A stretch of DNA of 30,037 nt from an uncultured Planctomycetales bacterium (GCA_964565175.1 CAZMDZ010000001.1:1-30037); one strand, 5' to 3'; positions 1-23,657 are shown, numbered from the stretch's first letter. Notes: generated from the sequence alone by a model not told the origin. Numbers and translations are program-made.

Positions 1-172
1 CACGAGGTTCAATAAATAATCTGCGGTTATGGGTCAGCCTGCGATTGAGTTGAGCCCAATACGACGCCTGTATACTTCGCTCAGAGTTAATTCGTTGCCT
101 AACATAGTCCGTTTGCACGCACTCCACCCACGAGTCGAACAGGATTTGCTTGATCAGCTTCCGCCCTTTCAT
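1..172 (-). CDS. Partial hypothetical protein (runs off window start), possibly the N-terminus of a PD-(D/E)XK-type nuclease
   Basis: Not in the ORF track because it has no stop inside the window. The ATG at 172 overlaps the TGA of the oxidoreductase (ATGA). 57 open codons: MKGRKLIKQILFDSWVECVQTDYVRQRINSERSIQASYWAQLNRRLTHNRRLFIEPR. The nuclease call is a weak inference from SERSIQA...FIEPR. Confidence 0.55.
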   Translation of the reverse strand, partial: MKGRKLIKQILFDSWVECVQTDYVRQRINSERSIQASYWAQLNRRLTHNRRLFIEPR

Positions 173-1461
173 TTCAGGTATTTCGACGGGAATTTCCACG
201 GCGCACGATACTCCGGCACCGAATGAGGGCTGCGCTTAAATGGAGACGCAATGGTTTCCCCAGAAAGTTGGCTGAGCGTTGCCAAAGTTATCGGCAGATC
301 CACCTTGGAGTGATACTCGACATTGCAGCTTGTTTGGCCGCCGTTGCGAATGCAGTCCAGCCATTCGATTTCGTGAATGCCGCCGTCGGGGGTAACCTTT
401 TCGACGGGGTCCAGCGGATCGAGGTCCATCGACTGAGAAATGATTTCGTGGTTACTGTAATCGGTGCGCAGAGTTCCGTTCGCGCCATGGAAGTAAACGC
501 CTAGCGCCCGGACCTTGGTGCCGAATTCATAACCATGATGATTGAACTGCGAAAAATGCCAGCGCATGGTCAGGTCTGGGTATTGCCAAATCACATCCTG
601 CGTATCGGGCGCGTCGCCATCTCCGCCGAGGATATAGCGGCCGCCGATGCAGCTTGTTTTTACTGGATAACCTAGTTCCAACGCCCACACTGGCAGGTCA
701 AGTAAATGCGGCGCCATGCCCGGCGTCCAACCGCCGGAGTACGCCATCCACGAGCAATGTTGAGCCGCATCATTGACCAGCAAGCGATTAAATTCACACT
801 CCTCGGCCGGGCCTAACCACAGGTCAAAATCAATATCATCCGGCGCCTCTTCTTTGGGCGCGGTGCCAATTCCATCCACCCCCATATTCCAACCCCAAAA
901 CATTTCGACGCGGCCAATTTTGCCCAATCGACCGGACCGGACCCAGTCCACCACTTGACGGTAGTTCGCGGCTTGATGGATTTGAGTACCGACTTGGGTA
1001 ACCACCTGGTGCTCGCGCATCGCATTGCGCACCGCCAGCGTTTCCGCGGGGTACATGGTCATCGGCTTCTGCAAGTAAATGTGCTTGCCCGCTTCGGCCG
1101 CTTCAATGGCTTGTAAGCAATGCCAGTGCGGCGGCGTGGCAATGATCACTGCATCGACCTCAGGGTTGCGCAAGACCTCTCGATAATCGGAGTAAGCCTT
1201 TGCATTCGGGTGAGTTTTCAACCACGCGTCGGTACGGTGTTCCTGCACATCGCAGACCGCAACCAATTCGGTATCTGGATCCGCCAACGACTGGCGCAAG
1301 TTGTGCGACCCCATTCCCCCACAACCAATCAGCGCCAAACCCAGCTTGTTCATTGCCGGACTGGTTTGCCCACGTCGGGATCGCGTCACCGGCAAAACAG
1401 GGCTGGTCAAAAATGCGGCGGCACCGCTGATTAAGGCTTCGCGTCGGGAGAGGGATTTCAT
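169..1461 (-). CDS. Gfo/Idh/MocA family NAD(P)-dependent oxidoreductase with Tat signal
   Basis: Twin-arginine leader SRREAL, Rossmann motif LIGCGGMG, IATPPHWH, YLQKPM, DFDLWLGPA. ATG at 1461 preferred over the GTG at 1470. Confidence 0.92.
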   Translation of the reverse strand: MKSLSRREALISGAAAFLTSPVLPVTRSRRGQTSPAMNKLGLALIGCGGMGSHNLRQSLADPDTELVAVCDVQEHRTDAWLKTHPNAKAYSDYREVLRNPEVDAVIIATPPHWHCLQAIEAAEAGKHIYLQKPMTMYPAETLAVRNAMREHQVVTQVGTQIHQAANYRQVVDWVRSGRLGKIGRVEMFWGWNMGVDGIGTAPKEEAPDDIDFDLWLGPAEECEFNRLLVNDAAQHCSWMAYSGGWTPGMAPHLLDLPVWALELGYPVKTSCIGGRYILGGDGDAPDTQDVIWQYPDLTMRWHFSQFNHHGYEFGTKVRALGVYFHGANGTLRTDYSNHEIISQSMDLDPLDPVEKVTPDGGIHEIEWLDCIRNGGQTSCNVEYHSKVDLPITLATLSQLSGETIASPFKRSPHSVPEYRAPWKFPSKYLK

Positions 1462-1474
1462 CGGCAGCACTAGC

Positions 1475-3169
1475 TTATACGAAGTACATCACTAGCGAGG
1501 CGCCCAAAATGATGGCTACCCACAGCACCATCGAACCGGTCGGCCAGGTACGAGCCAAAACTCCTTCTTGGCGGTGGTAGCCAGCAAGCCACAGGGTTCC
1601 TTTGGTCAGCGCGCCGACCGATGCCGCGCGGAAAGCTTTGTCCATCGCGGTGATGCGATTGGAAATGGTTTCGATCATGTGCGGCACGAAACGGCGGTAA
1701 AGCCAGTTGGCATCAAGGTTGGCCGAGCGCAGTTCCGGTGGGTAGATCTTGTAGATCCGCAGACTCAAGAACGCCAGAGCCGAGAACAGAAGCAATTGCA
1801 GTTGCGCCAAGACGTGACCGCTGGTGTATGGATCATACGTATTGGTGAAGGGCATCAGCGCGTACAGCGCCTGCGGATAACAACCGATGCCGATGCACAA
1901 GGTCGCCGAAATAGTCATGGCAATCAGCATGTTGCGCGGTGCTTCATGCGCGGTTTCGACATGCTTGGAGTCGTGGCTAAAGAAAGCGAAGAACGGGATT
2001 TTGATACCGGCGTGGTGGAACACACCTGCGGCGGCAAACAGCAACCCCAACCAAGCCACTTCGTAACCTTCGGCCAACACCGCCGAAACGATCATCGACT
2101 TACTGACAAAACCATTGAACAGTGGGAAGGCCGAAATCGACGCCGCGCCGATCATGCAAAGAATGACCGTCTTCGGCATCTTCTTATAAAGACCTCCCAA
2201 TTCCGAACCGCGCATTTCACCCGTAACGTGCAACACCGCGCCCATGCTCATCATCAGCAAGCCTTTGAATAACACATCATTAAAGGCATGGCCGACGGCG
2301 CCGTTGATGGCCAACTCGGTCCCCACGCCGATCCCCACCACCATAAAACCTAACTGGTTGATCATGCTGTAAGCCAACACCCGGCGCAGGTCGTTGGCGA
2401 TGACGGCGAAGAAGATCGGGAAGCACGCCATCGCCAGCCCGATGTAAATCATGACCTCGGTGCCAGCGAATCCACGCGCGAGTGCATAAATGGCGACCTT
2501 GGTAGTGAACGCGCAAAGGAATACGGTGCCGCACGGCGAAGCTTCGGGGTAAGCTTCGGTGAGCCAGGTGTGGACGAGCGGAAAACTTGCCTTGATACCA
2601 AAGGCAAGGAAGATCAATTTCCCAGCAACGGAGTCGATGCCGATGTGATTGAACTCCAAACTGTGCCCGAGCCGCATCCAGGCGATGGTGCCCGCGAGGA
2701 GCAGCACGCCCGAAAATACCTGCACCAACAGATAGCGCTTGGCGGCACCCATGGAACGTTTGGTGCGGCGAGCGACCACCAACACTGCCGACGTCAGCGC
2801 GAGGCCTTCCCAGAACAAGAAGAGGGTGAGCAAATCCCCAGCGAACACTGCACCAACCGCGCAGGCGGCATAGGCGATCGAGCAAACCAGCTGCGCGGTT
2901 TTCTTGACGTGAAGCGAATAAATAATGCCGATGAAGGCGGCGATGTGAAACAAGTAACCGAACATGCGCGACATCGCGTCGACGCGAACCGGAACTAATT
3001 CCATGCCAAGGAACTCTGAGCGCACCATTGCTTCGGGCGCCAAGTTGTAGAGGAAAATGCCGCCGACGATGGGCGCTGCCAGCATCAATGCGGCGCGCAG
3101 TTTGCCGCGGGTGACCAGCGCTAATAATGCACCGACGAAAAGTGGGACCGTGACGAAGATTTCAGCCAC
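1475..3169 (-). CDS. mrpD: Mrp antiporter subunit D-like (third copy, with C-terminal extension)
   Basis: Polytopic protein with LFLFWE, GIKASFPLVHTWL, AFTTKVAIY, RRVLAYSMINQLG and HAFNDVLFKGLL. True start is the GTG at 3169 with a GGAGG RBS; the ORF-track start at 3277 is too long. Confidence 0.88.
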   Translation of the reverse strand: MAEIFVTVPLFVGALLALVTRGKLRAALMLAAPIVGGIFLYNLAPEAMVRSEFLGMELVPVRVDAMSRMFGYLFHIAAFIGIIYSLHVKKTAQLVCSIAYAACAVGAVFAGDLLTLFLFWEGLALTSAVLVVARRTKRSMGAAKRYLLVQVFSGVLLLAGTIAWMRLGHSLEFNHIGIDSVAGKLIFLAFGIKASFPLVHTWLTEAYPEASPCGTVFLCAFTTKVAIYALARGFAGTEVMIYIGLAMACFPIFFAVIANDLRRVLAYSMINQLGFMVVGIGVGTELAINGAVGHAFNDVLFKGLLMMSMGAVLHVTGEMRGSELGGLYKKMPKTVILCMIGAASISAFPLFNGFVSKSMIVSAVLAEGYEVAWLGLLFAAAGVFHHAGIKIPFFAFFSHDSKHVETAHEAPRNMLIAMTISATLCIGIGCYPQALYALMPFTNTYDPYTSGHVLAQLQLLLFSALAFLSLRIYKIYPPELRSANLDANWLYRRFVPHMIETISNRITAMDKAFRAASVGALTKGTLWLAGYHRQEGVLARTWPTGSMVLWVAIILGASLVMYFV

Positions 3170-3584
3170 GGTTGTCCTCCGTTTCTTCGTCGGCCAGGAA
3201 GTCTTCACTGGCGTGGCCGATGTGCTCGCCGCCGTGATCGATTTCCTCAACCCCGATAAGGATGTCCGGCCCACCATCCGGCGCGGCGAGCGGGTATTCG
3301 TCGTAATAGTTCTCGGCGCGCATCACCACCTTGCGCAATTGCTTGGCAGCCAGCACCAAAAGCACGCACGAAACAAAACCGTAAACCGGATAGAACGCGA
3401 ACATTGCCTCCCACGGATGATCGTGATGGCAGTGAATCACCGCGTCGAGCAAAACGGTAATCGCGCACAAGACCAGCAGCCCGCGAATCACAAGCTTGAC
3501 GTTCTTCGGGTTGTCGAATAAGTGCTTCTTGTCGACCGACTTGTCCGGGGTCGGCTTAGCGTTGGCATGGGGCTTATCACTCAT
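3162..3584 (-). CDS. Small two-TM Mrp-associated membrane protein with acidic C-terminal tail
   Basis: ATG at 3584 overlaps the upstream TGA (ATGA). Two hydrophobic segments flank HCHHDHPW, followed by MRAENYYDE and an Asp/Glu/His-rich tail. Its stop overlaps the next start. Confidence 0.8.
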   Translation of the reverse strand: MSDKPHANAKPTPDKSVDKKHLFDNPKNVKLVIRGLLVLCAITVLLDAVIHCHHDHPWEAMFAFYPVYGFVSCVLLVLAAKQLRKVVMRAENYYDEYPLAAPDGGPDILIGVEEIDHGGEHIGHASEDFLADEETEDNRG

Positions 3585-5113
3585 TTCCCCACTCCCTGGG
3601 CGAGCGCGTGGAACGGGTGCGGGAAGAAGAACAGTAAAATACAACCCAGCGCGGTGATGCCGATGGCAATCAAACACGGCAGCGGCGCTTCTTGAATGGC
3701 GTCGCCGGAATCGAACTTATGGTCGTGACGGCTGATGGCGCGCGGCGAGAAAAATGCGCGCAACGGGATGACCAAAATGTAGGTGATGTTGAGCAGAGTC
3801 GAGAGCAGCAACACCGACATCAAAATCCAAGCGCCAGCGTCAAGCGTGCCTTGCACCATCATCCATTTACTCCAGGTTCCGCCCATCGGCGGCAGACCGA
3901 TGATCGACAACGCACCGATGGTAAAGCCAGCCATGGTCCACGGCATGTGACGGCCGATGCCATGCAACTCGCTCACCTTGGTGCGGTGCGACGCAACCAA
4001 AATCGCGCCCGCGCAGAAGAACAAAGTGATCTTGCCGAAAGCGTGCATGGCGATGTGCATGCTGCCCCCCACCACGCCAGCCGAGGTACCAATCATGGCG
4101 CCCAACACGATATACGCCAACTGGCTAATGGTGGAATACGCCAACCTTGCTTTGAGATTATCCTTCTTCATGGCGTAGAAGGACCCGGCAAGAATGGTGA
4201 AGCCGGCGACGTAACTGAGGAACAGCGCGCCGTCGAGTTGGGCGATGGTGTCGATGCCGAAGATGTAAACGGCGATTTTCATCACCGTGAAGACACCTGC
4301 TTTGACCACGGCGACGGCGTGCAACAAGGCGGAGACTGGCGTTGGGGCGACCATCGCGGCGGGCAGCCAGCGATGGAAGGGCATCAGCGCGGCCTTGCCG
4401 CTGCCGAAGACAAATAACAGCAGCAGGATGCTGAGCAGACCTTGGTCGATGTCGTCGGGGAAGATACCTCCAGCTGTAAATTCAAGAGTGCCGGTGAGGT
4501 GGTAAGTCCAAATCGTCGCCAGCAGCATCAGGGCGACGGAAGTGCCCATTAAGATCCCCAGATAAATGCGGCCCGCTTTGCGAGCTGCTGAGGTGCCGGC
4601 GTGAGTCACCAGCGGGAAGGTGGCTAGCGTTAACACTTCGTAGAAAACGAAGAGCGTCAGCATGTTAGCAGCCATGGCGATGCCCAGCGTGGCGCAGATC
4701 GAAACGGCGAAGCAGGTGTAAAAGCGCGTTTGATTGATCTCGCCGTGGCCGCGCATGTAGCCGATGGCGTAAGTCGCAGTGACTGGCCAGAGGAAGGAGG
4801 CGATCAGCGCAAAGAGGATGCCAAGCGGTTCAGGGGAAAGCGCAATGGCCAAACCCGGCATAGGCTCGGCAAGGACCAACCTGGGAATGGCGCTGGAGAG
4901 TTGCTTGGTTGCTGGGGCTGCTGCGTTTGCTGCGGCAGTGAGCTGGTCGAAATCGAGTTGGAGTGCGAAGGTGGTGGTGAAGCAGAACAGCACCGCGCCG
5001 AACACCAACATCAAGCCATCGCGTAGATTGGGGTTTTTGCGGGTGAGCAGAATGGCGGCGGCAGCGGCCAAAGGGGTGAGCAAAATGAGCTGCAGCAGGA
5101 GGTCTGGGCTCAT
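3581..5113 (-). CDS. mrpD: Antiporter-like subunit of the MrpD/MrpA-NuoL family (second copy, MrpA/NuoL-type TM8 motif)
   Basis: LFVFYEVLTL, GKAALMPFHRWLPAAMVAPTPVSALLHAVAVVKAG, LKARLAYSTISQL, HAFGKITLFFCAG. ATGA overlaps at both ends. Confidence 0.88.
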   Translation of the reverse strand: MSPDLLLQLILLTPLAAAAAILLTRKNPNLRDGLMLVFGAVLFCFTTTFALQLDFDQLTAAANAAAPATKQLSSAIPRLVLAEPMPGLAIALSPEPLGILFALIASFLWPVTATYAIGYMRGHGEINQTRFYTCFAVSICATLGIAMAANMLTLFVFYEVLTLATFPLVTHAGTSAARKAGRIYLGILMGTSVALMLLATIWTYHLTGTLEFTAGGIFPDDIDQGLLSILLLLFVFGSGKAALMPFHRWLPAAMVAPTPVSALLHAVAVVKAGVFTVMKIAVYIFGIDTIAQLDGALFLSYVAGFTILAGSFYAMKKDNLKARLAYSTISQLAYIVLGAMIGTSAGVVGGSMHIAMHAFGKITLFFCAGAILVASHRTKVSELHGIGRHMPWTMAGFTIGALSIIGLPPMGGTWSKWMMVQGTLDAGAWILMSVLLLSTLLNITYILVIPLRAFFSPRAISRHDHKFDSGDAIQEAPLPCLIAIGITALGCILLFFFPHPFHALAQGVGK

Positions 5114-6684
5114 GGCAACGCCTCCATTAAGTCTGCGGTCGCTCGGTCGGCGAGGCCGAAGGACATTTCGGTGTTAAGACCGAAGTAAATGTTGGCGGCG
5201 GCCAGCAGCAAAATGGGAATCAACATCACCAGCGGTGCTTCCCGAACGTCGCCGGTAACTGGACAGGAGACCGGGCTGCTGGGAGCTTCTTCCGTTTCCC
5301 CGGTTTGCGCGAAGGCGTGGCTGCTGGCAGCGGATTTTTGATCCATCTCGGCGGGGAAAGTGCCGAGGAAGGCAGCCTCCAAAATGCGGCCGATGTAGAT
5401 CAATGCCATGAAGGAGCCAAGCAGCACGAGCAAGGCAAGCGGCCACAGTCCGGCTTCGAAGGTGGCGGTAACCAGGTACCACTTGCTAATGAACCCAGCC
5501 GTTCCCGGTACGCCAATCAAGCTCAGTCCAGCAATGGCAATCGCCGCCATCGTCAGCGGCATCTTGCGCCCCAAGCCGCGGAAAGATTCAATCCGGGTGG
5601 AGCCGACGCGATACATCACTGCGGCCAACGCCAGAAACAAAGCACCCTTCATCAACGCGTGATTGAAGATGTGAGTGATCGCAGCACTGACTCCAGTGTG
5701 ATTGGCCAGCCCAATGCCCATCACGATGTAACCGATTTGAGCAACGCTGGAGTAAGCCAACATGCGCTTGACGTTCTTTTGGAAAATCGCGACCAGCGAC
5801 GCCGACAGGATGCCCGCGCATCCAAGGGTGACCAAAATCAAGTCGTACGGCAGCGCGCCAAGGGCAAAACCTATGCCGAAAATGCTCAGTAAGAATCGCA
5901 GCAGCGAATAAATTGCGACCTTAGTTGCAGTCGCCGCCAGGAATGCGCTGACCACAGATGGTGCGTAGGCATAAGCGTTCGGCAGCCATAGATGCAGCGG
6001 GAACATCGCCACTTTTAAACCGAAGCCGACGGTGACGAAAGCAAAGCCAACTCGAATCGTGCCGGTTTCGGCAACAGCCGGTATGCGCCGAGCCATGTCG
6101 TCCATGTTCAGCGTACCGGTCATCATGTAAAGGAGGCCGACGCCAATCAAAATGAAGGTGGCGCCGATCGAGCCCATAATCAAATATTGATAGGCGGCGC
6201 TTAGTGCGCGTCGGTCGCGGCCCATGCTGATCAAGGCATAGGAGGATAGGGACGAAATCTCGAGGAAGACGAATAGGTTGAAGGCGTCGCCGGTAATCGT
6301 CATGCCGGCGAGTCCGGTGAAGCAGAGCAAGAATGCCGCGTAGAACACCGAGACTCGGCGTTCGATGATCTCTTGGGTGACGCTGAGCCGCGAGGAGCTC
6401 AGCACCAGCGCGGCGATGGCATTGACGATGAGGAGGACGAGACCACCGAGGATGTCGATGCGGTATTCAATTCCCCATGGCGGCTCCCAGCCACCGAGTT
6501 GATAGCGCACTGTTCCGCTTTCGAGCACTTGCTGCAGCAGCAGGCAGGTGACAGCGAATGAACCCCAAACCGCAACTTGAGCAATCAACCGGGCGATGGC
6601 GCCGTTGCGGAACAACGATGCAATCGGCGCAGCAAACAGCGGAATCAAGATGACAAGAATGGGGAGGTGGTCGATCAAATCCAC
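5110..6684 (-). CDS. mrpD: Mrp antiporter subunit D (first copy)
   Basis: YQLGGWEPPWGIEYRID, DAFNLFVFLEISSL, GLKVAMFPLHLWLPNAY, ATATKVAIY, NHALMKGALF. GTG start with GGAGG RBS. Confidence 0.92.
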   Translation of the reverse strand: MDLIDHLPILVILIPLFAAPIASLFRNGAIARLIAQVAVWGSFAVTCLLLQQVLESGTVRYQLGGWEPPWGIEYRIDILGGLVLLIVNAIAALVLSSSRLSVTQEIIERRVSVFYAAFLLCFTGLAGMTITGDAFNLFVFLEISSLSSYALISMGRDRRALSAAYQYLIMGSIGATFILIGVGLLYMMTGTLNMDDMARRIPAVAETGTIRVGFAFVTVGFGLKVAMFPLHLWLPNAYAYAPSVVSAFLAATATKVAIYSLLRFLLSIFGIGFALGALPYDLILVTLGCAGILSASLVAIFQKNVKRMLAYSSVAQIGYIVMGIGLANHTGVSAAITHIFNHALMKGALFLALAAVMYRVGSTRIESFRGLGRKMPLTMAAIAIAGLSLIGVPGTAGFISKWYLVTATFEAGLWPLALLVLLGSFMALIYIGRILEAAFLGTFPAEMDQKSAASSHAFAQTGETEEAPSSPVSCPVTGDVREAPLVMLIPILLLAAANIYFGLNTEMSFGLADRATADLMEALP

Positions 6685-7043
6685 AGATCTACCTCCTTAA
6701 ACTTGTCGATGGCGTTGTCCCGTTCTTGGATTTCATCCTCTTCGACGGTGCCGTAAGCCTCGTGAATGCGAATGACCAACGCCAGCCCCACTGAAGTCGT
6801 CGCCACGCCAACGACGATTGCGGTCAGCATCAAAACGTGCGGAACTGGGTTGGAATAAACCTCGGTCCCCTCTGTCACGATCGGCGCAGTGCCTCCCGCA
6901 ACCTTGCCCATCGAGATATACAGGATGAACACCGACGTCTGGAACATGCCCAAGCCCACCATTTTCTTGCCCAAGTTCCCCTGCGAAATGACGACGTAAA
7001 AGCCTGCCATCATTAAAAACACCGAGAGTAGATAGTTGTACAT
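6675..7043 (-). CDS. mrpC: Mrp antiporter subunit C
   Basis: 122 aa, three TM segments, NPVPHVLMLTAIVVGVAT motif. Confidence 0.92.
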   Translation of the reverse strand: MYNYLLSVFLMMAGFYVVISQGNLGKKMVGLGMFQTSVFILYISMGKVAGGTAPIVTEGTEVYSNPVPHVLMLTAIVVGVATTSVGLALVIRIHEAYGTVEEDEIQERDNAIDKFKEVDLWI

Positions 7044-7044
7044 C

Positions 7045-8031
7045 TCAGTTGGGCAAAGTGGGCCGCCGCAGTCCGGAGAATGCGTAAAAGATGGTGAGGA
7101 TGACTGAGAATACGGCGACGCCGACTCCCAGTTCGATCAGCAAAATACCGAGGTGTTGACCATGCACCGGATCGTGGCCGAGCGCGTTGTAATCGAGAAA
7201 CTCGCGACCAAGGATCATGCAGGCGACGCCAGTTCCGGCGTAGATCAGCACGCCTGCCGCGGAAAGGCGGTACAGCCAATGCGGGGGTAGCACCCGGCGG
7301 ACGTCGGCTTCGCCGAAAACCAAGTCGTAGATGACGAAACCGGTTGCGAAGATCACGCCCGCTTGGAAACCACCGCCTGCGCCGTAGTCGCCGTGGAACT
7401 GCACGTACAAGGCGTAGAGCAGAATGAAGGCAATCAACACTTTGATCGGAACACGCAGTACCAATGCATCGCCGATGGCCAAGCGGCCTTGTTTTTTGTA
7501 TCGACCCTCGCGAATGCCTAGTAACAGCAGCACCGCCAACCCGGCGGTGAAGATCACCGTGGTTTCCCCCAAAGTGTCGTAGCCGCGATAGCTCGCCAAC
7601 ACCGACGTCACCATATTCGGCACGCCGATTTCGGTGGGCGAATCGTTGATAAACCGCGGCGCCATGTGCTGGTGAATGGGCGCCATCGGGTCGCCAAATT
7701 CAGGCATGTCGGTCAAGCCGTACAACAACGCCCCGCCGGTAATGATGACGACTAATAATGGCAGCAACGGACTGCGTCGGCGTTTGCTTTCGAAGCGGCC
7801 GGTTAAGCGCAAGGTGCTGAGCATCAAGACGGTGGATATTCCCGCGCCAACAGCGGCTTCGGTGAAAGCCACGTCGACGGCATCGAGAGTCATAAAGAGA
7901 ACGGCGGTTAAAAAACTGTAAATCCCGAACAGCATGACCACCGCAAAGAGATCCACGGTTCGAATGGCGACCAAGGAGACGAAAATCAAGAACGCCATTA
8001 ACACCAAGTTGATCAGTTGGTCGATACTCAT
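7045..8031 (-). CDS. mrpB: Mrp subunit B: DUF4040 (MrpA C-terminal-like) domain fused to MnhB domain
   Basis: True start is the ATG at 8031 (ATGA overlap, GAGGGGGA RBS). DAVDVAFTEAAVGAGIST (DUF4040), NMVTSVLASYRGYDTLGE, and HGDYGAGGGFQAG (MnhB). Confidence 0.88.
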   Translation of the reverse strand: MSIDQLINLVLMAFLIFVSLVAIRTVDLFAVVMLFGIYSFLTAVLFMTLDAVDVAFTEAAVGAGISTVLMLSTLRLTGRFESKRRRSPLLPLLVVIITGGALLYGLTDMPEFGDPMAPIHQHMAPRFINDSPTEIGVPNMVTSVLASYRGYDTLGETTVIFTAGLAVLLLLGIREGRYKKQGRLAIGDALVLRVPIKVLIAFILLYALYVQFHGDYGAGGGFQAGVIFATGFVIYDLVFGEADVRRVLPPHWLYRLSAAGVLIYAGTGVACMILGREFLDYNALGHDPVHGQHLGILLIELGVGVAVFSVILTIFYAFSGLRRPTLPN

Positions 8032-8378
8032 TCCCCCTCGCCGGGCTTGGCCTCTGCTTCGGTGCCGTTTGGCTGATCGAAGCTCAGCGGGGTTTGACCG
8101 TCGCGCAAGGCCGCTTTGACCATTGCGTGAGTGGCAGTGGGATTGGTGAAGAGCACAAAAAGCAAAACCGCGAGCAGCTTTAAGCTGTCGAGTGACCAAC
8201 CCGTTTGCAGCATGACGCCAGTGAGTATCAATGGCGCTGCAAGAGTTTCGGTGACACTGGCGGCGTGTACGCGCGAGAAGAAATCTGGTAAGCGCAAAAC
8301 GCCAACGCTGCCAGTGATCGCCAGGAAGCCGCCGCTTAAGAAGCAAATCCAACTGAGCACGTCGATCACTAGGCTCAT
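8028..8378 (-). CDS. mrpG: Mrp antiporter subunit G
   Basis: GVLRLPDFFSRVHAAS and LFTNPTATHA motifs. GGAGG RBS, ATGA overlap. Confidence 0.92.
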   Translation of the reverse strand: MSLVIDVLSWICFLSGGFLAITGSVGVLRLPDFFSRVHAASVTETLAAPLILTGVMLQTGWSLDSLKLLAVLLFVLFTNPTATHAMVKAALRDGQTPLSFDQPNGTEAEAKPGEGE

Positions 8379-8659
8379 CGAATTTCCTCCGTTTTTGAAA
8401 TCTCGGTCTCGGAGCGATCGCGTTCGAAGTAGCGCATGATGGCCACCGTGCTAACGAAGTTGACCAACGCGTAAAGCAACGCGATGTCGACGTAACTATT
8501 CCAGCCCAACGCATGACCACCAACTGCAATCAATAACACAGTGTTGGTGCCGAACATATTCGTTGCCAGCATCCGGTCGTATGCAGTGGGTCCGCCGAAG
8601 GAGCGGAGCAAGGCCAACGCCATCGACATAAAAATCGCCAGCAACGCTGCGAGGAACAT
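8375..8659 (-). CDS. mrpF: Mrp antiporter subunit F
   Basis: GPTAYDRMLA and YVDIALLYALVNFVST. ATG at 8659 lies 2 nt after the mrpE stop. Confidence 0.9.
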   Translation of the reverse strand: MFLAALLAIFMSMALALLRSFGGPTAYDRMLATNMFGTNTVLLIAVGGHALGWNSYVDIALLYALVNFVSTVAIMRYFERDRSETEISKTEEIR

Positions 8660-8661
8660 GT

Positions 8662-9129
8662 TCAGAGTTTCAGCTTTCGGATTCTTCTTTCCATCTCGCC
8701 GTCGTTGAGTTCGGCGAGGTTGTCTTGGGTCAAACAATGAACGGAAAGATGGTCGTCACGAGCGCCTGTGGTCAGAGTTCCGGGGGTAAGAGTGATGGAA
8801 TTGGCATAGAGCGTCTTTTTCAACGGGGTTGTAATTTCCGTATCGATGCGTGCCCAAGTGGGGTGGATAGGCAGGTCAGGATTCCAAATGCAGCGCACCA
8901 CACTAATGTTGGCGCGGATCACTGCGCCGCTCAGCCAGAATAAATAGCCAAAAAGGCCGGGGCTGACGCGCATAAAGCTGGCCTCTTGATCGGTGCGATC
9001 CATGCGTGCGAGCAACCACACAACCAACGCCACCGAGACAAATCCCAACCCTAGCAGCAGGGCTGTGAAGTGCCCTGACAGCAGTACCCAGAACAGGCAC
9101 AAGAAAAGAGTGAGAACGAAGTAGTACAC
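8662..9129 (-). CDS. mrpE: Mrp antiporter subunit E
   Basis: FWVLLSGH N-terminus and ANSITLTPGTLT signature. Confidence 0.92.
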   Translation of the reverse strand: MYYFVLTLFLCLFWVLLSGHFTALLLGLGFVSVALVVWLLARMDRTDQEASFMRVSPGLFGYLFWLSGAVIRANISVVRCIWNPDLPIHPTWARIDTEITTPLKKTLYANSITLTPGTLTTGARDDHLSVHCLTQDNLAELNDGEMERRIRKLKL

Positions 9130-9201
9130 GGTGGCGGTCTCGCTCAGAGAACCAAGCCCAACAGTGAGTTAGTTCAATGTAGCCGGCTAGACCAGGGCAA
9201 T

Positions 9202-11838
9202 CTATCGAGCGTAAGCGCGCCAAGCCTGGTCGAGCACGACTGGGTCCATGGCGCCGGGGAGAATGATGAACCGATAACGCAGTCGCAACGGTTCACCCTT
9301 GTTTAAATCATAGCGCTTGCCCGCTTGCGGGAAAGTGGGCTGAAACCACGGCAATTCGGGGTAAGTGACGACGTCGGCGGGGTGCTCGGGGTTGCTGGGG
9401 TGCTCAAGGATGGCCAGCGTGGTCAATTGCGTGCCGCCCTGCCAGACACCACTTGCCGCCGACCACGCAGGTTGGCGAGAGTTTGAAAGTTGCAAATCCT
9501 TGACCGGGGCCAAGCGCACGTTCAAGCCGCCGTACTTGTCCTGACCTCGGCGGGCGATGCTGACGCCATCCTCTAGCGCCTTGAAGCTGAGATCCAAGTC
9601 AACCGTCTTGCCGTACAAGCCGTCGCCGAGCAGCAACGTGACTTCCGCCGTTTCGCGGACGATGGGGGTTTTGTTCTCCCACATCCATTGATTGACCGCT
9701 TTGATGCCAACACGATCACCGCGCCGCACCGACATCGGTCTGCCGAGCGGCTTGGAAAATACCTGCTGCAGCGCGTGCAAATCCCCGATTTGTTCACCGT
9801 ACTTCACTTCGGGCCACGCCCAATAGATCCCGCGATGGTGCGGGTGATCGTGGCTCCAATCCAGGGTCAGGTCTTCGCCGTCTAAGCCGCTGAGCGGGTG
9901 GATGTACCCACTGCGCGGCACCGCGTACTTGTGATTCCCCGGAGCAACTTGATCCAAGTACCCGGTTGGCAGCGCCACTTGCTCACCGAGGTAAGTGAAC
10001 ACCGGCGTCGGGTAGAGATCGAAGCGATACGCGCCCCCTTCACTGCTGACGCCATGCACTCCGGCGTTGTAGAAGCTAGTCGCAGGCCGCATTTTGAAAG
10101 TCCAGGCATGCTGGCAAGGTAGATCATTGATGCCGATCGCAGAAGTGTCGACGGTCAGCATGCCATCATTCCACGTCCACGGCAGCTCGCGATCCAAGCC
10201 AAGCATGCGCACCGCACTCCCCTTACCGGGCTCAGGCGTGTGAAGCAGCAGTTGATCGCCCGGCCAATCCATGGTGATGGCGTAAAGGTTGCCATGGTTT
10301 CGGGTGTAAGCAACCGTTTGCCACTGCGAGCGGTAGCGCACCTTCAATCCATTTTCATTCCCTAGCTTGGTGGTAAAGAGCGAATCGCTTGGGATGACGT
10401 GCTTCAATCCATCTTCATGCGCCCAATGCAAACGAGCGACGGCTTGATGGGTGGTTTCTTTGAACTCGACGCGAATCGGCAGGCGCTCGCCTGCGGTCAT
10501 GTAGCGAATGCCTGGCTCTTCGCTGGTGGCAACGGGTTGGCCTTCGATCCACAACGTGGCGGAGTCGTCGGCTTCGAGCTCGAACAAGTAGGCGCCGTCG
10601 GCTGGGGAATCGAGAAAGCCAGTCCACTCGGCGGTGAAATGATCGGGCTCAATTCGATCGGCCGGTGAGTTGCGCACCCAATCAAAATCGATGTTGGCGT
10701 CGACGCGCTCCACATCCAAATGGATCCACTCTCCTAGACGCTTGGTGGGAGTGGCTCCATAAATCGCTTCGTTGTTGACCTCAATCCATGCACCAAGTTG
10801 GCGCAATCGTTCTTGCTGCAGCAGTGGAATTTGCCCATCCGCGCCCGGCCCGACGTTGAGCAGCATGCCGCCGCCGTGACTGACGGCGCGGGCGAAATAG
10901 TGAATCAATTGATCCGGTCGCAGGTAGGCGTCGAGTTTTTCATTGCGATTCAGGCCAAAACTCCGCCCCAGACCGCGGCACTCCGCCCATGGCCGATCGC
11001 CCGGGGGCGCTCCAGCTGAATACTCAGGGGTGCGGAATCCGACCTTGGATCCACCGCCCCAGCGATCGTTCACCGCAAGGTCATCGGGACAGCCAGATTC
11101 GGTGTAAAGCCAGTTCAAGAGTTCTGCACTTTTCCAAGTGCTGGCCGGGTGATCCCATTCGCCATCCGAAAACAGCACCGCCGGTTTGTAACGAGACATG
11201 ACGTCCTTGAATTGCGGAATCATGTGCTCGGCCACGTAACGATCGACGTCGTTCTTGGGTCGGTCGTTGGCCCAAGAGTATATCGGGTGATTCCACTCCG
11301 GCAGCGAGTAATACAAACCCATGCGCAAGCCGGCTGCGCGTACCGCGTTGGTCAAATCGCCAACCAAGTCACGTTTCGGCCCGACCTCCATCGAGTTCCA
11401 AGGGAAGCCGCGCGATTCGGACGCGTGACTGCTCGGCCACAAGGCAAAGCCGTCATGGTGCTTGGAAGTCAGCACGACATATTGCGCCCCAGATGCGCGA
11501 AAGAGCTCGGCCCATTCCGTCGGCTCGAACAACTCAGCCTTGAAATGCGGCGCCAAATCTTCATAGGTGAAGTCTTCACCGTAGACTCGCTTCAAATAAT
11601 CAATCCGCGGCTGATCGCCGGACTGCAAACCGCGCAAATACCACTCGGCGTACTGCTCCTTGCCACTCCACGACGGCACCGAGTACAAGCCCCAGTGAAT
11701 GAAAATGCCCAACTTGGCATCGCTGAACCATTGCGGGAACGGCCGGTCGGCCAGTCCCTCCCAGGTTGGAGTTTCTTGGGATGCTACTGGGTTTGCAAGC
11801 ACCAGAACGGCGAGTACGCTAGACACGGACCACTTCAT
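9202..11838 (-). CDS. GH29 alpha-L-fucosidase with PA14-type insertion and C-terminal DUF6807 (PF14100 'PmoA'-named) domain
   Basis: Sec signal, WFSDAKLGIFIHWGLYSVP, YVVLTSKHHDGFALW, LFSDGEW and LLNVGPGADGQIP (GH29). IDFDW..FTAEWTGFL..ADDSATLWI (PA14, ~10330-10730). YIHPL..DHPHHRGIYWAW..YGGLNVR (DUF6807, ~9202-10080). Confidence 0.88.
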   Translation of the reverse strand: MKWSVSSVLAVLVLANPVASQETPTWEGLADRPFPQWFSDAKLGIFIHWGLYSVPSWSGKEQYAEWYLRGLQSGDQPRIDYLKRVYGEDFTYEDLAPHFKAELFEPTEWAELFRASGAQYVVLTSKHHDGFALWPSSHASESRGFPWNSMEVGPKRDLVGDLTNAVRAAGLRMGLYYSLPEWNHPIYSWANDRPKNDVDRYVAEHMIPQFKDVMSRYKPAVLFSDGEWDHPASTWKSAELLNWLYTESGCPDDLAVNDRWGGGSKVGFRTPEYSAGAPPGDRPWAECRGLGRSFGLNRNEKLDAYLRPDQLIHYFARAVSHGGGMLLNVGPGADGQIPLLQQERLRQLGAWIEVNNEAIYGATPTKRLGEWIHLDVERVDANIDFDWVRNSPADRIEPDHFTAEWTGFLDSPADGAYLFELEADDSATLWIEGQPVATSEEPGIRYMTAGERLPIRVEFKETTHQAVARLHWAHEDGLKHVIPSDSLFTTKLGNENGLKVRYRSQWQTVAYTRNHGNLYAITMDWPGDQLLLHTPEPGKGSAVRMLGLDRELPWTWNDGMLTVDTSAIGINDLPCQHAWTFKMRPATSFYNAGVHGVSSEGGAYRFDLYPTPVFTYLGEQVALPTGYLDQVAPGNHKYAVPRSGYIHPLSGLDGEDLTLDWSHDHPHHRGIYWAWPEVKYGEQIGDLHALQQVFSKPLGRPMSVRRGDRVGIKAVNQWMWENKTPIVRETAEVTLLLGDGLYGKTVDLDLSFKALEDGVSIARRGQDKYGGLNVRLAPVKDLQLSNSRQPAWSAASGVWQGGTQLTTLAILEHPSNPEHPADVVTYPELPWFQPTFPQAGKRYDLNKGEPLRLRYRFIILPGAMDPVVLDQAWRAYAR

Positions 11839-11844
11839 TCTCGG

Positions 11845-12839
11845 ATGCTATCGCCGCCCCCACCGACCGACACGATTCCGCGTTGGCGACGTCGGCTTGC
11901 CAAACGACAAGTAGCCGACATCCTCATTTTCGTGTCATGGCTGAGCTTGGCGGTTTTTGGTTTACTGACCGAGGTGTCGATATGGGGTGCCACAGTCCTG
12001 CTTGTGCTTGGTTTAACAATCTTTTTGACGCTGCGGGCCAATGAGCACCAATGGAAGGAATTGAATGCGCGCGGAATGAATTTTCCTTCCCGCGTACTTT
12101 GCTCAACCGGCTGGCTTACTACTCACCCATGGCCTTCATGGTCAGCTATTACTTTTTTCATTCCATGGGAGTCAGCCCGCTGGCCTTTGCCACGCTGTTG
12201 ATTGCAGTCTTGATTCTGCGCACCTATCTCTACCCCATAATCCTCACCCCTGCGCTCACTCGCCATCCAGACAAGGAAACCCAACTTGCGGAGATTGCAG
12301 GCGACCTGATGCAGCGAGCGGAAACAATGCGCTGCCCGGTGATGGTGGCGGATCGCTTTTACGACGTCGATGACAAAGACGAAGCTGAAAACAACGAGCC
12401 CGACTTAAATGCGTTTGCCTGCGGTTTTCGCAAATCTCGCCGGGTGGTGATCTATGCAGACTTAATGGATCATTATTCAGGCCATGCCGTGCGTGGCGTG
12501 CTGGCCCACGAGCTTGCTCATATTCATCATCATCACACGGTGAAAGCGCTGATCCTGAATACACCGCCGTTTGCCCTCTTGCTATTTTTGCTGAGATCCG
12601 GGGATTCGCTAGAGCTCGTTTACTTCGCCATCGGAACACTAGTGTTGCTAGCCTTTATGCGCAAAGTCTCGCGCGTGCATGAATTCCAAGCAGATCGCAC
12701 CGCCGCTGATTGGGTTGGGCCGGAAGTGATGCATGAGTTGATCGACAACTTTGGCACCGAGCCCGACGTCGGCCGGGCAGATCGTTTGATGCGCACGCAT
12801 CCGCTTCATCAGCAGCGCAAGGACGCACTTTCCAATTGA
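11845..12839 (+). pseudogene. Membrane M48 (HtpX/Ste24-like) zinc metallopeptidase, split by a -1 frameshift at ~12089-12091
   Basis: The 12051-12839 ORF has GVLAHELAH and SRVHEFQADR. A two-TM N-terminus is encoded from ATG 11845 in another frame (tail of the 11149-12201 ORF). One extra C in the CCC at 12089-12091 would give ...MNFPSPRTLLNRL..., about 331 aa. Confidence 0.7.
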
Positions 12840-12893
12840 TCCTCCAAATTCATCGTGGCGTCGGAGGACCTGCTTATCCCTTGATCCTTCGAC

Positions 12894-14777
12894 TCACGGC
12901 ATCAGCGTCCATTTCCATGTCACCACCCGCAGCACGCCGTCGACGGTGCCAGAAACTTTGGCGGTCAGCTGGTCGTGCTCGCGGAAGTATTCGATGTGAG
13001 TGGGGAAGTCGTGATCCTCGTTGACGAAAACGGCACGGCGGGGTTCGAGCGTTTGTAGGACGAACTCGGCGGGCTCTTGGTTGGAAGGAAAGGCGCGGTA
13101 GACCACCAAGCCATCGCGCTCGACGATTTCCAAATGCTCCAAACTAAAACCGCCTTCGGCGTTGCAGTCGCGGTGGGTGCCGACCATGACGCCATTGCGC
13201 GGCGCGAACCAGCCTTCTTCTTGGACACTCTTTTTGTGTCTGGAACTCCAGTGACCAGCCAGCCAACGCAACTGATTGATTTTTGATCCCCCATTGACCG
13301 TTGGCATTTTGGCGCCGATTTCCTTTTGCCAGTCATGGAGTTTAGCCAGCAACTCGTTGCGCTTTTCCTTGTGTTGAGTTGCCAAATCAAATTGTTCGCT
13401 AGCGTCCACATCCAAACGGAATAGTTCAACCTTGCCGCTATCAAACCACTCAATCAACTTCCAATCGCCGTCGCGCACCGCCGCGCCGGGTTGGCCTCCT
13501 TGATTTCCGTAATGAGGGTAGTGCCAAAAAACCGGCCCGCGCTGGTACTCCTCATGCCCCAACAAAGGACCGACAAAGTTGACGCCATCCACATGCTGCG
13601 CCGGAGTGCTTTGGATTCCAACCAAACTCAAAATGGTTGGATAAAAATCGGTGCTGGTCACCACCGCACTGCAGACCGAAGGCTGCTTCACCGAGGGATC
13701 CACCGAGGTCATCCCTTCCGGCAAATGCACAATCAATGGCTCGCGGATTCCGCCTTCATACAACCAACCTTTACCCGCACGCAGCGGCAAGTTGCTGGTT
13801 GGACTGCCTTCCGAAGTGGATAAGCCGCCGTTGTCCGAGGTGAAAATCACAATGGTGTTTTTGTCCGCGCCGGTTTCGGCCAGCGCATCCATCACCGTAC
13901 CGACCGCCATGTCCATGGCTTCGACCATGCCGGCATAAACCGCGTGGTTCTGCACCATGCGCACCCGACGCTCCCCTTCTTTACCCCACGCCTCGGCCGG
14001 TCCGGCCTCGCGCTTTTTCAAATACTTCTGCTTCAAATCCTCACGCGCAATCAACGGCGTGTGCACCGAGTAGAACGACAAGAATGTAAAAAACGGTTGG
14101 CCTTGATTTGCGCGAATAAACGCCGCCGTTTCATTCGCCAAACGCTGCGGCAAATGCTCGCCGTCGGGGCCGTCTTGCAAACGCGGGTTGCCATACGGAG
14201 AGAAGTATTTTTTGCCGCCATAAGGACCGCCACGAGTGATGCCGCCTATGTTGACGTCAAAACCATGGTCTTCGGGCCAAAATCCTTCGGGGCCTAAGTG
14301 CCATTTGCCAGCGAAAAAAGTTGCGTAGCCATTGGCCTTCAACGCTTCGGCCAACGTCACTTCTTCATGCGCCATCCGATCGGTGTATTCCGCGGGCAGC
14401 AGCGCGGTTTTGCGCTTCCACTTCTCCGGTTGGTTGAATCGACCTTCGTTGATGTAGTCCGTAATGCCAGTCCGTGCTGGATACTTGCCGGTCATGATGC
14501 TCGACCGCGTTGGGCTGCACACCGGGCACGAAGCATAAGCATTGGTGAAGCGTGTCCCGCCATCGGCTAACCGCTGAATGTTGGGCGTGTCATAAAACGT
14601 ATTCGGATTGTTGGGCGACACATCCATATAGCCGAGGTCATCCACCAAAATGAAAACTACATTCGGCGGCGCCAACCCCTGCTCTTGAGCCAAAGAACTC
14701 GCTCCCACCAAGAAACATGCTGCGATTGCCGCAAAGGCCGTCGCCCAGCCCGAAGGTCTTTCCGCGCGATGGATCAT
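12894..14777 (-). CDS. Formylglycine-dependent (Cys-type) sulfatase fused to a C-terminal DUF6265-like domain
   Basis: Signal peptide, FILVDDLG, CSPTRSSIMTG and FAGKWHLG. The last ~130 aa (LRWLAGHW..EEGW..AVFVNEDHDFPTHIEY) resemble DUF6265. Confidence 0.88.
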   Translation of the reverse strand: MIHRAERPSGWATAFAAIAACFLVGASSLAQEQGLAPPNVVFILVDDLGYMDVSPNNPNTFYDTPNIQRLADGGTRFTNAYASCPVCSPTRSSIMTGKYPARTGITDYINEGRFNQPEKWKRKTALLPAEYTDRMAHEEVTLAEALKANGYATFFAGKWHLGPEGFWPEDHGFDVNIGGITRGGPYGGKKYFSPYGNPRLQDGPDGEHLPQRLANETAAFIRANQGQPFFTFLSFYSVHTPLIAREDLKQKYLKKREAGPAEAWGKEGERRVRMVQNHAVYAGMVEAMDMAVGTVMDALAETGADKNTIVIFTSDNGGLSTSEGSPTSNLPLRAGKGWLYEGGIREPLIVHLPEGMTSVDPSVKQPSVCSAVVTSTDFYPTILSLVGIQSTPAQHVDGVNFVGPLLGHEEYQRGPVFWHYPHYGNQGGQPGAAVRDGDWKLIEWFDSGKVELFRLDVDASEQFDLATQHKEKRNELLAKLHDWQKEIGAKMPTVNGGSKINQLRWLAGHWSSRHKKSVQEEGWFAPRNGVMVGTHRDCNAEGGFSLEHLEIVERDGLVVYRAFPSNQEPAEFVLQTLEPRRAVFVNEDHDFPTHIEYFREHDQLTAKVSGTVDGVLRVVTWKWTLMP

Positions 14778-16438
14778 TTCTCGCCCTCCGCCGAGTCGTC
14801 TTGGTATTGCGCCTGCAATTCGCCCAACTGTTGGGCCATCGAAACGGCAAGGTCGCGGTATTCAGGGTCTAAGTACAAATTGTTCAATTCATCCGGATCA
14901 TTCTTCAAATCGAACAACTCCCACTCACCCACCTGGTAATAACGAATTAGCTTGTAGCGGTCAGTGCGAATGCCGTAATGCCGTTGCACCTTGTGTACAT
15001 CGGGGAAGCCGTAGTAGTGGTAATAAATCGAATCGCGCCACGATTCCTTTGCCAACGACAACTCCAAAATCTCGGCATCGTCTAAGTTGAAGTCGCCGCT
15101 GTTTTGCAAGAGCGGCAGCAAGGACATGCCTTGAAAATCATCCGGGACCTCCGCTCCTGCTGCCTGCAAAAATGTCGGTGCATAATCCAAGTTTTGCACC
15201 AAGTTCTTATTCACTGTTCCCGGCGGCGTTTTCCCTGGCCATTTCACCACTAGCGGCATCTTCAACGACTCTTCATACATCCAACGCTTGTCGTACCAGC
15301 CATGATCACCCAGAAAAAACCCCTGGTCCGAAGAATAGACCACGATCGTATTTTCAGCCAAACCCGCGTCTTCTAAATACTTCACAATTTTGCCGACGCT
15401 ATCGTCGACGGCTTTTGAAGTGCGCAAATAGTTCTTCATGTAGCGCTGATACTTCCAACGCACCAAATCCTTGCCGGTCAGATTCGCGTCGTAAAAAGCT
15501 TTGTTCTTCTCGGCATAACCCGCGCGCCATTTTTCCAGCTGCTCAGGCGTCATCTTCTTCAAATTGCGAAACCCAGATTTGTCGGTGGCAATTCCCGAAA
15601 TGGTGTCTTCCCGCGGATCCAAAAATAAATCATAAGCCGAATTCATGTGCCGATCGATTTCCATCTCTTGCCCAGCTGCCGGGCTGGCGTTGTCGGCATA
15701 ATCATCAAACAAAGTATCTGGCACAGGCAACTCGACGTCGTCCCACAAATTCAAATAACGCAGCGGCGGCATCCAGTTGCGATGCGGGCCCTTGTGTTGC
15801 GCCATCAGCAAAAACGGCTTGCCATCTTTACGCTGCTGCTCCATCCAACCAATCGCCATGTCGGTGATCAAGTCAGTGCAATAACCCTGCACCCGACGAC
15901 GCCCTTCCGGCGAAATAAAATCCGGGTTGTAGTAGTCGCCCTGGCCCGGCAGGATGTCCCAGTAATCAAACCCCTGCGGATCGCTATGCAAATGCCATTT
16001 GCCAATCATCGCCGTTTGATAGCCCGCTTTCTGCAACAACTTCGGAAAGGTAACCTGGTCCCCATCAAATCGATTGCCGTTGGCCATAAATCCATTTTTA
16101 TGACTGTGCTTGCCGCTCAAAATCACCGCCCGGCTAGGCCCGCAAATCGAATTGGTGCAGAAGCTGTTACGGAACAACATGCCTTGCGACGCAAGTTGAT
16201 CAATGTTCGGTGTCGGATTGAGTTCGGCGTATCGGGTTCCATAAGCGCCGATCGCATGCGGCGCGTGATCGTCGCTAAAAATGAAAACGATGTTGGGTTG
16301 CTTTCTGGCGCTGGCGTCGGCGGCTTGAGCCACGGCCGGCGCGGCGGCGGTGTGTGCGGCGGCCGGAGCGACGGCGGCTTGGGCGACGACCGGTGCGGCG
16401 AGCAACAGCGATGGAATTTGGAAGTGGAGCAGCTTCAT
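14774..16438 (-). CDS. Cys-type sulfatase, N-acetylglucosamine-6-sulfatase-like
   Basis: FIFSDDH, CGPSRAVILSG, MIGKWHL, YQRYMKNYLR, SSDQGFFLGDHGWYDKRWMYEES. Ala-rich spacer after the signal peptide. The subfamily call is by resemblance. Confidence 0.9.
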   Translation of the reverse strand: MKLLHFQIPSLLLAAPVVAQAAVAPAAAHTAAAPAVAQAADASARKQPNIVFIFSDDHAPHAIGAYGTRYAELNPTPNIDQLASQGMLFRNSFCTNSICGPSRAVILSGKHSHKNGFMANGNRFDGDQVTFPKLLQKAGYQTAMIGKWHLHSDPQGFDYWDILPGQGDYYNPDFISPEGRRRVQGYCTDLITDMAIGWMEQQRKDGKPFLLMAQHKGPHRNWMPPLRYLNLWDDVELPVPDTLFDDYADNASPAAGQEMEIDRHMNSAYDLFLDPREDTISGIATDKSGFRNLKKMTPEQLEKWRAGYAEKNKAFYDANLTGKDLVRWKYQRYMKNYLRTSKAVDDSVGKIVKYLEDAGLAENTIVVYSSDQGFFLGDHGWYDKRWMYEESLKMPLVVKWPGKTPPGTVNKNLVQNLDYAPTFLQAAGAEVPDDFQGMSLLPLLQNSGDFNLDDAEILELSLAKESWRDSIYYHYYGFPDVHKVQRHYGIRTDRYKLIRYYQVGEWELFDLKNDPDELNNLYLDPEYRDLAVSMAQQLGELQAQYQDDSAEGEK

Positions 16439-16480
16439 CTTCGGTAGGGTTCGCCCAAGTTAGCAGGTATGCTCGGAGAG

Positions 16481-22082: not shown

Positions 22083-22119
22083 GTAGTTCCGTCCGTCTCG
22101 GAGGTGGAGGTTGGTGGGA

Positions 22120-22175
22120 GTCCGGGAGACCAGGTGTCCGGGGGTCCGAGCGTTCGAGCGTTCGAGCGTTCCACT
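22120..22175. repeat. Degenerate 8-bp tandem repeat, 7 units
   Basis: gtccggga/gaccaggt/gtccgggg/gtccgagc/gttcgagc/gttcgagc/gttccact read directly from the sequence. Confidence 0.75.
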
Positions 22176-22215
22176 AAGTGGCGGAAGTAGCCGCGGGCAC
22201 TCTTCCCAAAAAGCG

Positions 22216-23622: not shown

Positions 23623-23657
23623 GGCTACGATTCTAATTCATTTCCTATGATGAACCC

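Follow-up and report, generated by a model that had tools for sequence, protein, structure and literature searches.

An mrpA-less Mrp operon with three antiporter-like subunits and a small membrane protein in an uncultured Planctomycetales genome

We analyzed a 30,037-nucleotide stretch of DNA from an uncultured Planctomycetales bacterium (GCA_964565175.1, CAZMDZ010000001.1:1-30037; hereafter the window), which carries, on the minus strand between positions 1475 and 9129, an Mrp locus of nine translationally coupled genes. A first-pass annotation, made from the sequence alone, had read their order as E-F-G-B-C-D1-D2-x-D3. Our minus-strand gene models, together with Pfam and NCBIfam matches, bear this order out: mrpE, mrpF, mrpG, a B gene fusing MbhD/E with MnhB, mrpC, and the genes for D1, D2, a small protein x and D3. 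Adjacent gene ends overlap by 4-10 nucleotides (nt) or leave a gap of 0-2 nt, and a GGAGG-like ribosome site precedes most of the nine genes. Scans for promoters and terminators gave no more hits than were obtained in shuffled sequence.

The first five genes encode the putative cation module and junction. The MrpE-like subunit (8662-9129; 155 amino acids (aa), GTG start) matches PF01899 MNHE (9.7e-31), the MrpF-like subunit (8375-8659; 94 aa) matches PF04066 (1.8e-17), and the MrpG-like subunit (8028-8378; 116 aa) matches PF03334 (1.8e-24) as well as TIGR01300 (77.9 bits, cut-off 63.1). The fused B protein (7045-8031; 328 aa) combines PF13244 MbhD, PF20501 MbhE and PF04039 MnhB in one chain, confirming the proposed joining of DUF4040 (MbhD/E) to MrpB/MnhB. 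Its residues ~1-185 are MbhD plus MbhE, the domain that ends canonical MrpA, and residues ~186-328 are MnhB/MrpB. It passes NF009161 (PRK12507) with 403 bits against a cut-off of 272, residues 5-322 lying on model positions 10-333; NCBIfam also holds separate models for the unfused halves. The MrpC or NuoK-like subunit (6675-7043; 122 aa) matches PF00420 and NF005624 (128.5 bits, cut-off 95).

Three antiporter-like proteins, each with PF00361, and the small protein x complete the operon. D1 (5110-6684; 524 aa) is of the MrpD type. D2 (3581-5113; 510 aa) has a NuoL/MrpA-type transmembrane helix (TM) 8, 14 TM in all and no lateral helix. Protein x (3162-3584; 140 aa) is a small two-helix membrane protein of no described family, the only product of the operon with neither a Pfam nor an NCBIfam match. 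D3 (1475-3169; 564 aa, GTG start), the putative distal subunit, ends in TM15, a lateral helix and TM16. Its start is most likely the GTG at 3169 and not the ATG of a 600-aa open reading frame (ORF), because 564 aa is the modal and almost invariant length in the D3 family. D3 passes NF009310 (PRK12668, Na+/H+ antiporter subunit D) with 660.7 bits against a cut-off of 564, its residues 7-564 spanning positions 10-583 of the 584-position model.

The operon thus contains the complete set of seven Mrp domain families (A-N-like channel, A-C/MbhDE, B, C, D, E, F and G), yet a full-length mrpA is absent, as the first-pass annotation had noticed. MrpA is a single chain with an antiporter-like domain, a lateral helix, TM16 and an MbhD/E-like C-terminal domain. 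No ORF here combines an antiporter-like domain with MbhD/E: the three PF00361 genes lack it, D3 stops after TM16, and the MbhD/E domain opens the product of the B gene, which lies five genes upstream. This is the layout of group 3 Mrp, defined by the lack of mrpA and the presence of mrpD-type genes alone, sometimes several (PMC8415708; also PMC5703873). Within the 30-kb window we found no hydrogenase, NuoH/MbhM, NuoB, NuoD, Fe-S subunit or quinone module, in agreement with the earlier reading. A redox module of the kind encoded beside the membrane arm in complex I, MBH and MBS is therefore missing from the window.

The nine window proteins were placed by phmmer in 84 related loci, 62 of which had enough upstream sequence, and the order E-F-G-B(B')-C-D1-D2-x-D3 was found in 62/62 complete loci. 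Of these, 26 have a fused and 36 a split B gene, so that the fusion is a lineage-variable detail. Carriers are mostly marine bacteria and include Shewanella, Alteromonas, Amphritea, Dasania, Cellvibrionaceae, other Gammaproteobacteria, Alphaproteobacteria, Nitrospiraceae, Myxococcota, Longimicrobiales and Planctomycetales; several are in culture, among them Shewanella gelidii, Alteromonas, Amphritea and Dasania. Among the matches listed, the D3 family comprises >8000 clusters at the 90% level, nearly all 562-575 aa long, and identity to the window D3 is 62-70% even in Gammaproteobacteria. The closest related locus found, with a D3 identity of 88%, lies in an uncultured Planctomycetales genome. 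NCBI labels the D3 relatives 'Na(+)/H(+) antiporter subunit D'.

Far from being an unusual local rearrangement, the operon is accordingly a fixed and very widespread type with an existing NCBI name. Its layout also appears in genome papers, as 'MrpEFGBBCDD' for the Solemya velum symbiont (PMC4287430) and as 'Mnh/MrpEFGBCD1D2D3' for Verruconatronum alginivorum (PMC13274419). In Nitrospira, two nuoM/nuoL-like genes have been described behind a group 3 Mrp (PMC7784846). Such genome-annotation mentions were all that our literature searches returned; no functional or structural study of a three-channel Mrp subtype was found. Pyrococcus furiosus has a stand-alone Mrp of the form mrpEFGBB'CD (PMC8415708), and by its gene content the operon type described here is this group 3 layout extended by a D2-x-D3 cassette.

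The genomic context of the operon is not conserved. Flanking genes vary by locus (ATP synthase, Cox-like genes, parAB). In one lineage F1Fo ATP synthase genes follow the operon (L001/L002:12500-18900), and in an alphaproteobacterial lineage CoxG/CoxS/CoxM-like genes do (L003:11963-13927). Genes beside the related operons were read at L001/L002, L003/L004 and L090, L091 being too fragmented, and at none of the loci read does a NuoH/B/D-like or hydrogenase gene adjoin the operon.

Next, we examined the three antiporter-like proteins. The first-pass annotation had described a Lys-type TM8 motif in D1 and D3, a His-type motif in D2, and an end of D2 at ~510 aa, all of which we recovered. The motifs of D1 (...ATKVAIY) and D3 (...TTKVAIY) contain the TM8 Lys of the MrpD/NuoM/N type, and that of D2, APTPVSALLHAVAVVKAG, has the NuoL/MrpA-type His (His265) plus a Lys (Lys271). 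Aligned to E. coli NuoL/M/N, each protein has the TM5 Glu, TM7 Lys, TM8 Lys, TM11 His/Lys and TM12 Lys of the charged axis. D1 E142, K224, K255, H342, K346 and K401 show no variation across 73 orthologues (H338 is kept in 71/73), D3 E121, K193, K224, H294, K302 and K357 are invariant in 85, and the axis of D2 is retained in nearly all of 78. The loss of this axis from one D copy had been named as grounds for abandoning the three-subunit proposal; because the axis is intact in D1-D3 and in essentially all of the 73-85 orthologues, that objection does not hold.

The three proteins indeed differ from one another, each belonging to its own orthologous family. By sequence, the nearest solved structures are MbsH, MbhH and MrpD for D1, and MrpA (7d3u_A), NdhF and NuoL for D2, while D3 scores about equally against MrpA, MbhH and MrpD; no structure in the PDB exceeds ~24% identity to D2 or D3. 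We built a neighbour-joining tree (436 columns, 100 bootstraps) with E. coli NuoL/M/N, three canonical MrpA/MrpD pairs and Rhizobium subunits as references, MbhH/MbsH being left out. In this tree D1 is sister to canonical MrpD (86% support) and MrpA groups with NuoL (94%). The D2 clade (88%, including a D2-like subunit of the rhizobial complex I discussed below) and the D3 clade (98%) are separate, and both lie outside the MrpA/NuoL and MrpD groups. We assign D1 on this basis as an MrpD orthologue, and D2 and D3 as distinct old families.

This placement speaks against the proposal that MrpA had been split among D2, D3 and B. As the D2 and D3 clades fall outside the MrpA/NuoL clade, these proteins do not appear to be two halves of a recently split MrpA. 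Moreover, E-F-G-B-B'-C-D is the Pyrococcus group 3 or MBH-type order, in which MbhD/E is never part of an antiporter-like subunit (PMC8415708), and the fusion within B varies by lineage (26 fused, 36 split). The statement that Pyrococcus MBS has three such subunits was likewise not upheld: matches in 6u8y are confined to two chains, H and X.

The AlphaFold model of D3 (87-sequence alignment; predicted local distance difference test score (pLDDT) 78) shows 14 core helices with a periplasmic beta-hairpin, followed by TM15 (450-472), a 46-residue helix (487-532) and TM16 (545-563). The long helix and final TM of the proposed C-terminal extension are therefore supported by the model; the amphipathic character ascribed to the same stretch was not, as described below. 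A Foldseek search with this model returned MrpA chains on top (7qru_A and 6z16_A, TM-score 0.76-0.79), then MbhH and NuoL/ND5 chains. We measured the TM15-TM16 linkers by hydropathy and by eye, with a precision of ~5 aa. They are 46 aa in S. aureus MnhA2, 48 aa in Deinococcus ficus MrpA and 50 aa in Rhizobium sp. SL42 MrpA, all from two-channel systems; ~71 aa in the window D3, for which three channels are proposed; 77 aa in the three-channel E. coli NuoL; and 87 aa in the D3-like subunit of the four-channel rhizobial complex I. Linker length thus rises with the number of channels to be passed, a relation already put forward for complex I variants (cited in PMC9040806), the D3 linker being ~23 aa above that of two-channel MrpA and the rhizobial one ~16 aa longer again. 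As the D3 linker is longer than that of MrpA and near NuoL length, the model suggests that D3, as the distal subunit of a single complex, probably braces two neighbours, D2 and D1.

Protein x lies between D2 and D3 in 78/79 loci. There are 94 homologues, and a profile search of 1.84 billion representatives found 2295 clusters at 50% identity, all of 77-168 aa; no relative was found in NCBIfam, among PDB sequences or in Pfam, where matches with E values up to 1 were considered. The family has a variable N-terminus and a conserved core at residues ~20-95, with two helices around a His-rich loop and the consensus FDxPxNV...C..L...D.F.H.H...PWE...GFY..YGFVSCVLLVLAAKQLRK..MR.EDYYD. The AlphaFold model, of modest confidence (pLDDT 66), is a hairpin formed by helices 26-50 and 64-88. 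Both ends of x are rich in Lys/Arg and, by the positive-inside rule, should face the cytoplasm. The window version adds an acidic tail of ~45 residues rich in Asp/Glu/Gly/His (3162-3300, minus strand), shared with the closest planctomycete relatives only; versions elsewhere end directly after the conserved EDYYD.

We considered x as the detached TM15/TM16 of a NuoL-like D2 and rejected the idea, since both ends of x would be cytoplasmic, the opposite of a TM15-helix-TM16 arrangement. The single locus at which x is not placed between D2 and D3, L035, contains an in-frame D2-x ORF (6661-9975), which we also rejected as evidence of contact. The stretch that replaces TM14, the last helix of D2, resembles an out-of-frame translation, so that this joining is probably a frameshifted assembly and not a true fusion. 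Given the constant association of x with D2 and D3, its most likely place, by analogy, is at or near the D2/D3 interface. As far as our searches reach, the recognition of x as a constant subunit is new.

Residues of the cation module were compared with three canonical Mrp systems and with the positions named in the Anoxybacillus structure paper (PMC7419157). MrpF keeps the GPTxxDR motif (GPTAYDR in the window), including the conserved Asp of the Na+ path, MrpG retains the conserved TM3 Pro, and MrpE the TPG motif with its essential Pro. In the fused B, two MrpA-C carboxylates (Asp/Glu) are retained in YDTLGE. Given the retained Asp, Pro and carboxylates, a cation path is likely present; which ion it carries is not readable from sequence.

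The D2-x-D3 trio has a counterpart in complex I. In a tblastn search of D2 against plasmids, rhizobial megaplasmids matched at ~50% identity. Rhizobium sp. Pop5 has the order nuoJ-nuoK-[D2-like, 487 aa]-[84-aa hypothetical]-[D3-like, 591 aa]-nuoM-nuoN-nuoA-B-C-D-E-F. This arrangement is known as 'green complex I' and has two MrpD-like subunits in place of NuoL (Degli Esposti & Martinez Romero 2016; Chadwick 2018; both cited in PMC9040806). Identity between the Pop5 and window cassettes is 48% for D2, 43% for x (over the core) and 41% for D3, with order conserved, and in the neighbour-joining tree the D2-like and D3-like subunits branch as sisters to the Mrp clades of D2 and D3, respectively. 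Since a homologous trio with sister-clade relations is present in rhizobial complex I, D2-x-D3 can be regarded, on sequence grounds, as a three-gene module used in two settings, x included in both. The settings differ. In green complex I the cassette stands between nuoK and nuoM within a full nuo operon, beside a redox arm and NuoM plus NuoN (four channels), and its D3-like linker is ~16 aa longer; in the window the cassette follows mrpC-D1, not nuoK, and no nuo genes are found. Both the sharing of this three-gene cassette and the helix-length series, in which the subtype stands between Mrp and green complex I, are new as far as our searches reach.

In four related gammaproteobacterial loci (L056, L060, L075 and L084, upstream 1-4400), nuoL-nuoM-nuoN immediately precede the three-channel mrp operon in the same orientation. 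Having nuo and mrp genes side by side could have eased the exchange behind green complex I.

Compared with its closest relatives, the window operon combines features of several systems. The first seven domains are identical in order to Pyrococcus furiosus mrpEFGBB'CD (PMC8415708), which also has neither a full-length mrpA nor a redox module. In contrast, the Pyrococcus operon lacks D2, x, D3 and a NuoL-like lateral helix, and its B and B' are separate, not fused. Canonical group 1/2 Mrp (6Z16, 7QRU, 7D3U) has all the domain families in common with the window, with D1 matching MrpD as its predicted orthologue, the D3 fold being closest to canonical MrpA (the TM-scores above) and the Na+-path Asp/Glu/Pro shared. 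It differs in having two channels and a one-chain MrpA that unites channel, lateral helix, TM16 and C-terminal domain. In the window that C-terminal domain is joined to B, the linker is ~23 aa longer, x is added, and both the Glu706 equivalent and the His pair of MrpC are altered. The complex I membrane arm (NuoL/M/N with NuoJ/K) shares three antiporter-like subunits and the charged axis, NuoL has TM15, lateral helix and TM16 as in D3 (linker 77 versus 71 aa), and NuoK-like and NuoJ-like parts are found at the junction in both. However, the window has no NuoH/A and no quinone/NADH module but a cation module E/F/G/B instead, and by the neighbour-joining tree neither D2 nor D3 is orthologous to NuoM or NuoL.

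From the observed gene content, conservation, subunit classes, charged axes and the length and position of the D3 C-terminal helix, we infer, with good but not full confidence, that the nine genes encode one stand-alone, mrpA-less group 3 Mrp (CPA3) complex, an electrogenic Na+(K+)/H+ antiporter with three proton channels. In our model, E, F, G and the MnhB half of B would form the cation (Na+ or K+) path, and the MbhD/E half of B together with the NuoK-like C would form the junction. D1, D2 and then D3 would follow as three proton channels in a row. From the far end, the NuoL-like lateral helix of D3 would run back over D2 and D1 in the cytoplasm, TM16 serving as a final transmembrane anchor near the junction, and x would serve the D2-D3 pair as its own two-helix accessory subunit. 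The membrane potential would drive protons in through the three channels and one cation out, with probably one H+ per cycle more than in two-channel Mrp. Ion, direction and stoichiometry, as well as the single complex, the D1-D2-D3 order and the place of x, belong to this proposal. Given an extra channel, the H+ per Na+ ratio is plausibly higher, which would help Na+ extrusion at low proton-motive force or at high external pH and salt; this would fit the mostly marine carriers.

Several points weigh against this proposal. Two coupling-site positions depart from canonical Mrp throughout the subtype: in the fused B (7045-8031, minus strand) the equivalent of MrpA-C Glu706 is a Gly, with a Glu four residues earlier (FTEAAVGAG), and MrpC (6675-7043, minus strand) lacks the His pair, having FQT at His37/His40 of the Anoxybacillus structure. 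Ion specificity or coupling could therefore differ from canonical Mrp. By a simple hydrophobic-moment test the long helix of D3 is not significantly amphipathic, its moment of 0.29 comparing with 0.23 +/- 0.06 for shuffles, of which 144/1000 reach 0.29. The linker steps (~+23 and ~+16) also differ from the 26-aa helix insertion per extra subunit in complex I variants (cited in PMC9040806). The tree is a neighbour-joining one with few reference sequences and weak deep nodes. Finally, the physical order of the subunits and the position of x follow from gene order and analogy.

Of the alternatives, the one that survives best is a single complex with another task, exchanging K+ or Ca2+, or running in reverse so that a sodium gradient expels protons in marine cells. 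Mrp systems specific for K+ and Ca2+ have been described (PMC5703873), the group 3 Mrp of Pyrococcus has been proposed as an Na+ importer and H+ exporter (PMC8415708), and the altered coupling-site residues and the mostly marine carriers would both suit such a role. Nevertheless, we consider it unlikely: the sequence gives no pointer to a specific other ion, and the carboxylates and prolines of the Na+ path are retained. Direction is set by the gradients of the cell and cannot be read from sequence.

It is harder to accept that the three D proteins do not share a complex and that D2 and D3 are alternative partners, making up at least two separate two-channel complexes, for instance as conditions change. 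Two antiporter-like subunits do suffice for canonical Mrp, and there is no three-channel Mrp structure, PDB relatives reaching at most ~24% identity and x having none. But all nine genes are translationally coupled in one operon, hence made together, and the three D families are never lost or reordered across 62 operons. Since only D3 has the lateral helix and only D1 is MrpD-like, D2 alone would be left without a clamp. Furthermore, the linker of D3 has the length of NuoL, not of MrpA.

We give least credence to a redox-pump membrane arm of the MBH, MBS or complex I type with its electron-input module encoded elsewhere in the genome: although the E-F-G-B-B'-C-D order matches MBH/MBS operons (PMC8415708), the D2-x-D3 cassette operates within rhizobial complex I and the operon directly follows nuoL-M-N in four related loci, those four loci hold a complete nuoL of their own, the redox genes listed above neither lie in the window nor adjoin the operon in the related loci read, its neighbours vary by locus, and the stand-alone Pyrococcus Mrp has an equal basic layout (PMC8415708).

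Within the preferred reading of a three-channel Mrp antiporter, a broader and more tentative idea concerns the cassette itself. We suggest as a possibility, somewhat less probable than its opposite, that D2-x-D3 is a portable pump-extension cassette, plugged onto an MBH-type Mrp core in one case and onto complex I, in place of NuoL, in the other. Under this idea x would be an obligatory subunit of the module, not described before, the antiporter would move ~3 H+ per Na+, and the Mrp subtype would have been the donor to green complex I and to the five-pump Manganitrophus complex I. If this is true, bacteria of marine or alkaline habitats could expel sodium at low proton-motive force.

The subtype bears on the H+/Na+ ratio of Mrp and on energy transfer between neighbouring antiporter-like subunits, questions common to complex I. 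Related parts form a series with two channels in canonical Mrp, three in this subtype, four in green complex I and five in Manganitrophus; with its lengthening lateral helix, the series offers a direct test of whether one proton is moved per added channel. The window itself is one more planctomycete example of a common marine subtype.

Beyond the operon, positions 9202-26681 of the window form a neighbourhood for polysaccharide degradation, of a kind typical of Planctomycetes. A fucosidase with PA14 and DUF6807 domains is encoded at 9202-11838, four sulfatases at 12894-14777, 14774-16438, 16469-18631 and 22216-23622, and a PSCyt1/PSCyt2/PSD1 protein at 23658-26681; an M48 peptidase is also present. 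Two long ORFs in this region, at 18650-19927 (plus strand) and 19749-22082 (minus strand), have no Pfam match. On the other side of the operon, a gene for a Gfo/Idh/MocA oxidoreductase with a twin-arginine-like signal, SRREALISGAAAF, occupies 169-1470 on the minus strand; among the other loci read, none has it next to the operon. As it starts only 4 nt past the D3 stop on the same strand, this gene may be co-transcribed with the Mrp operon.

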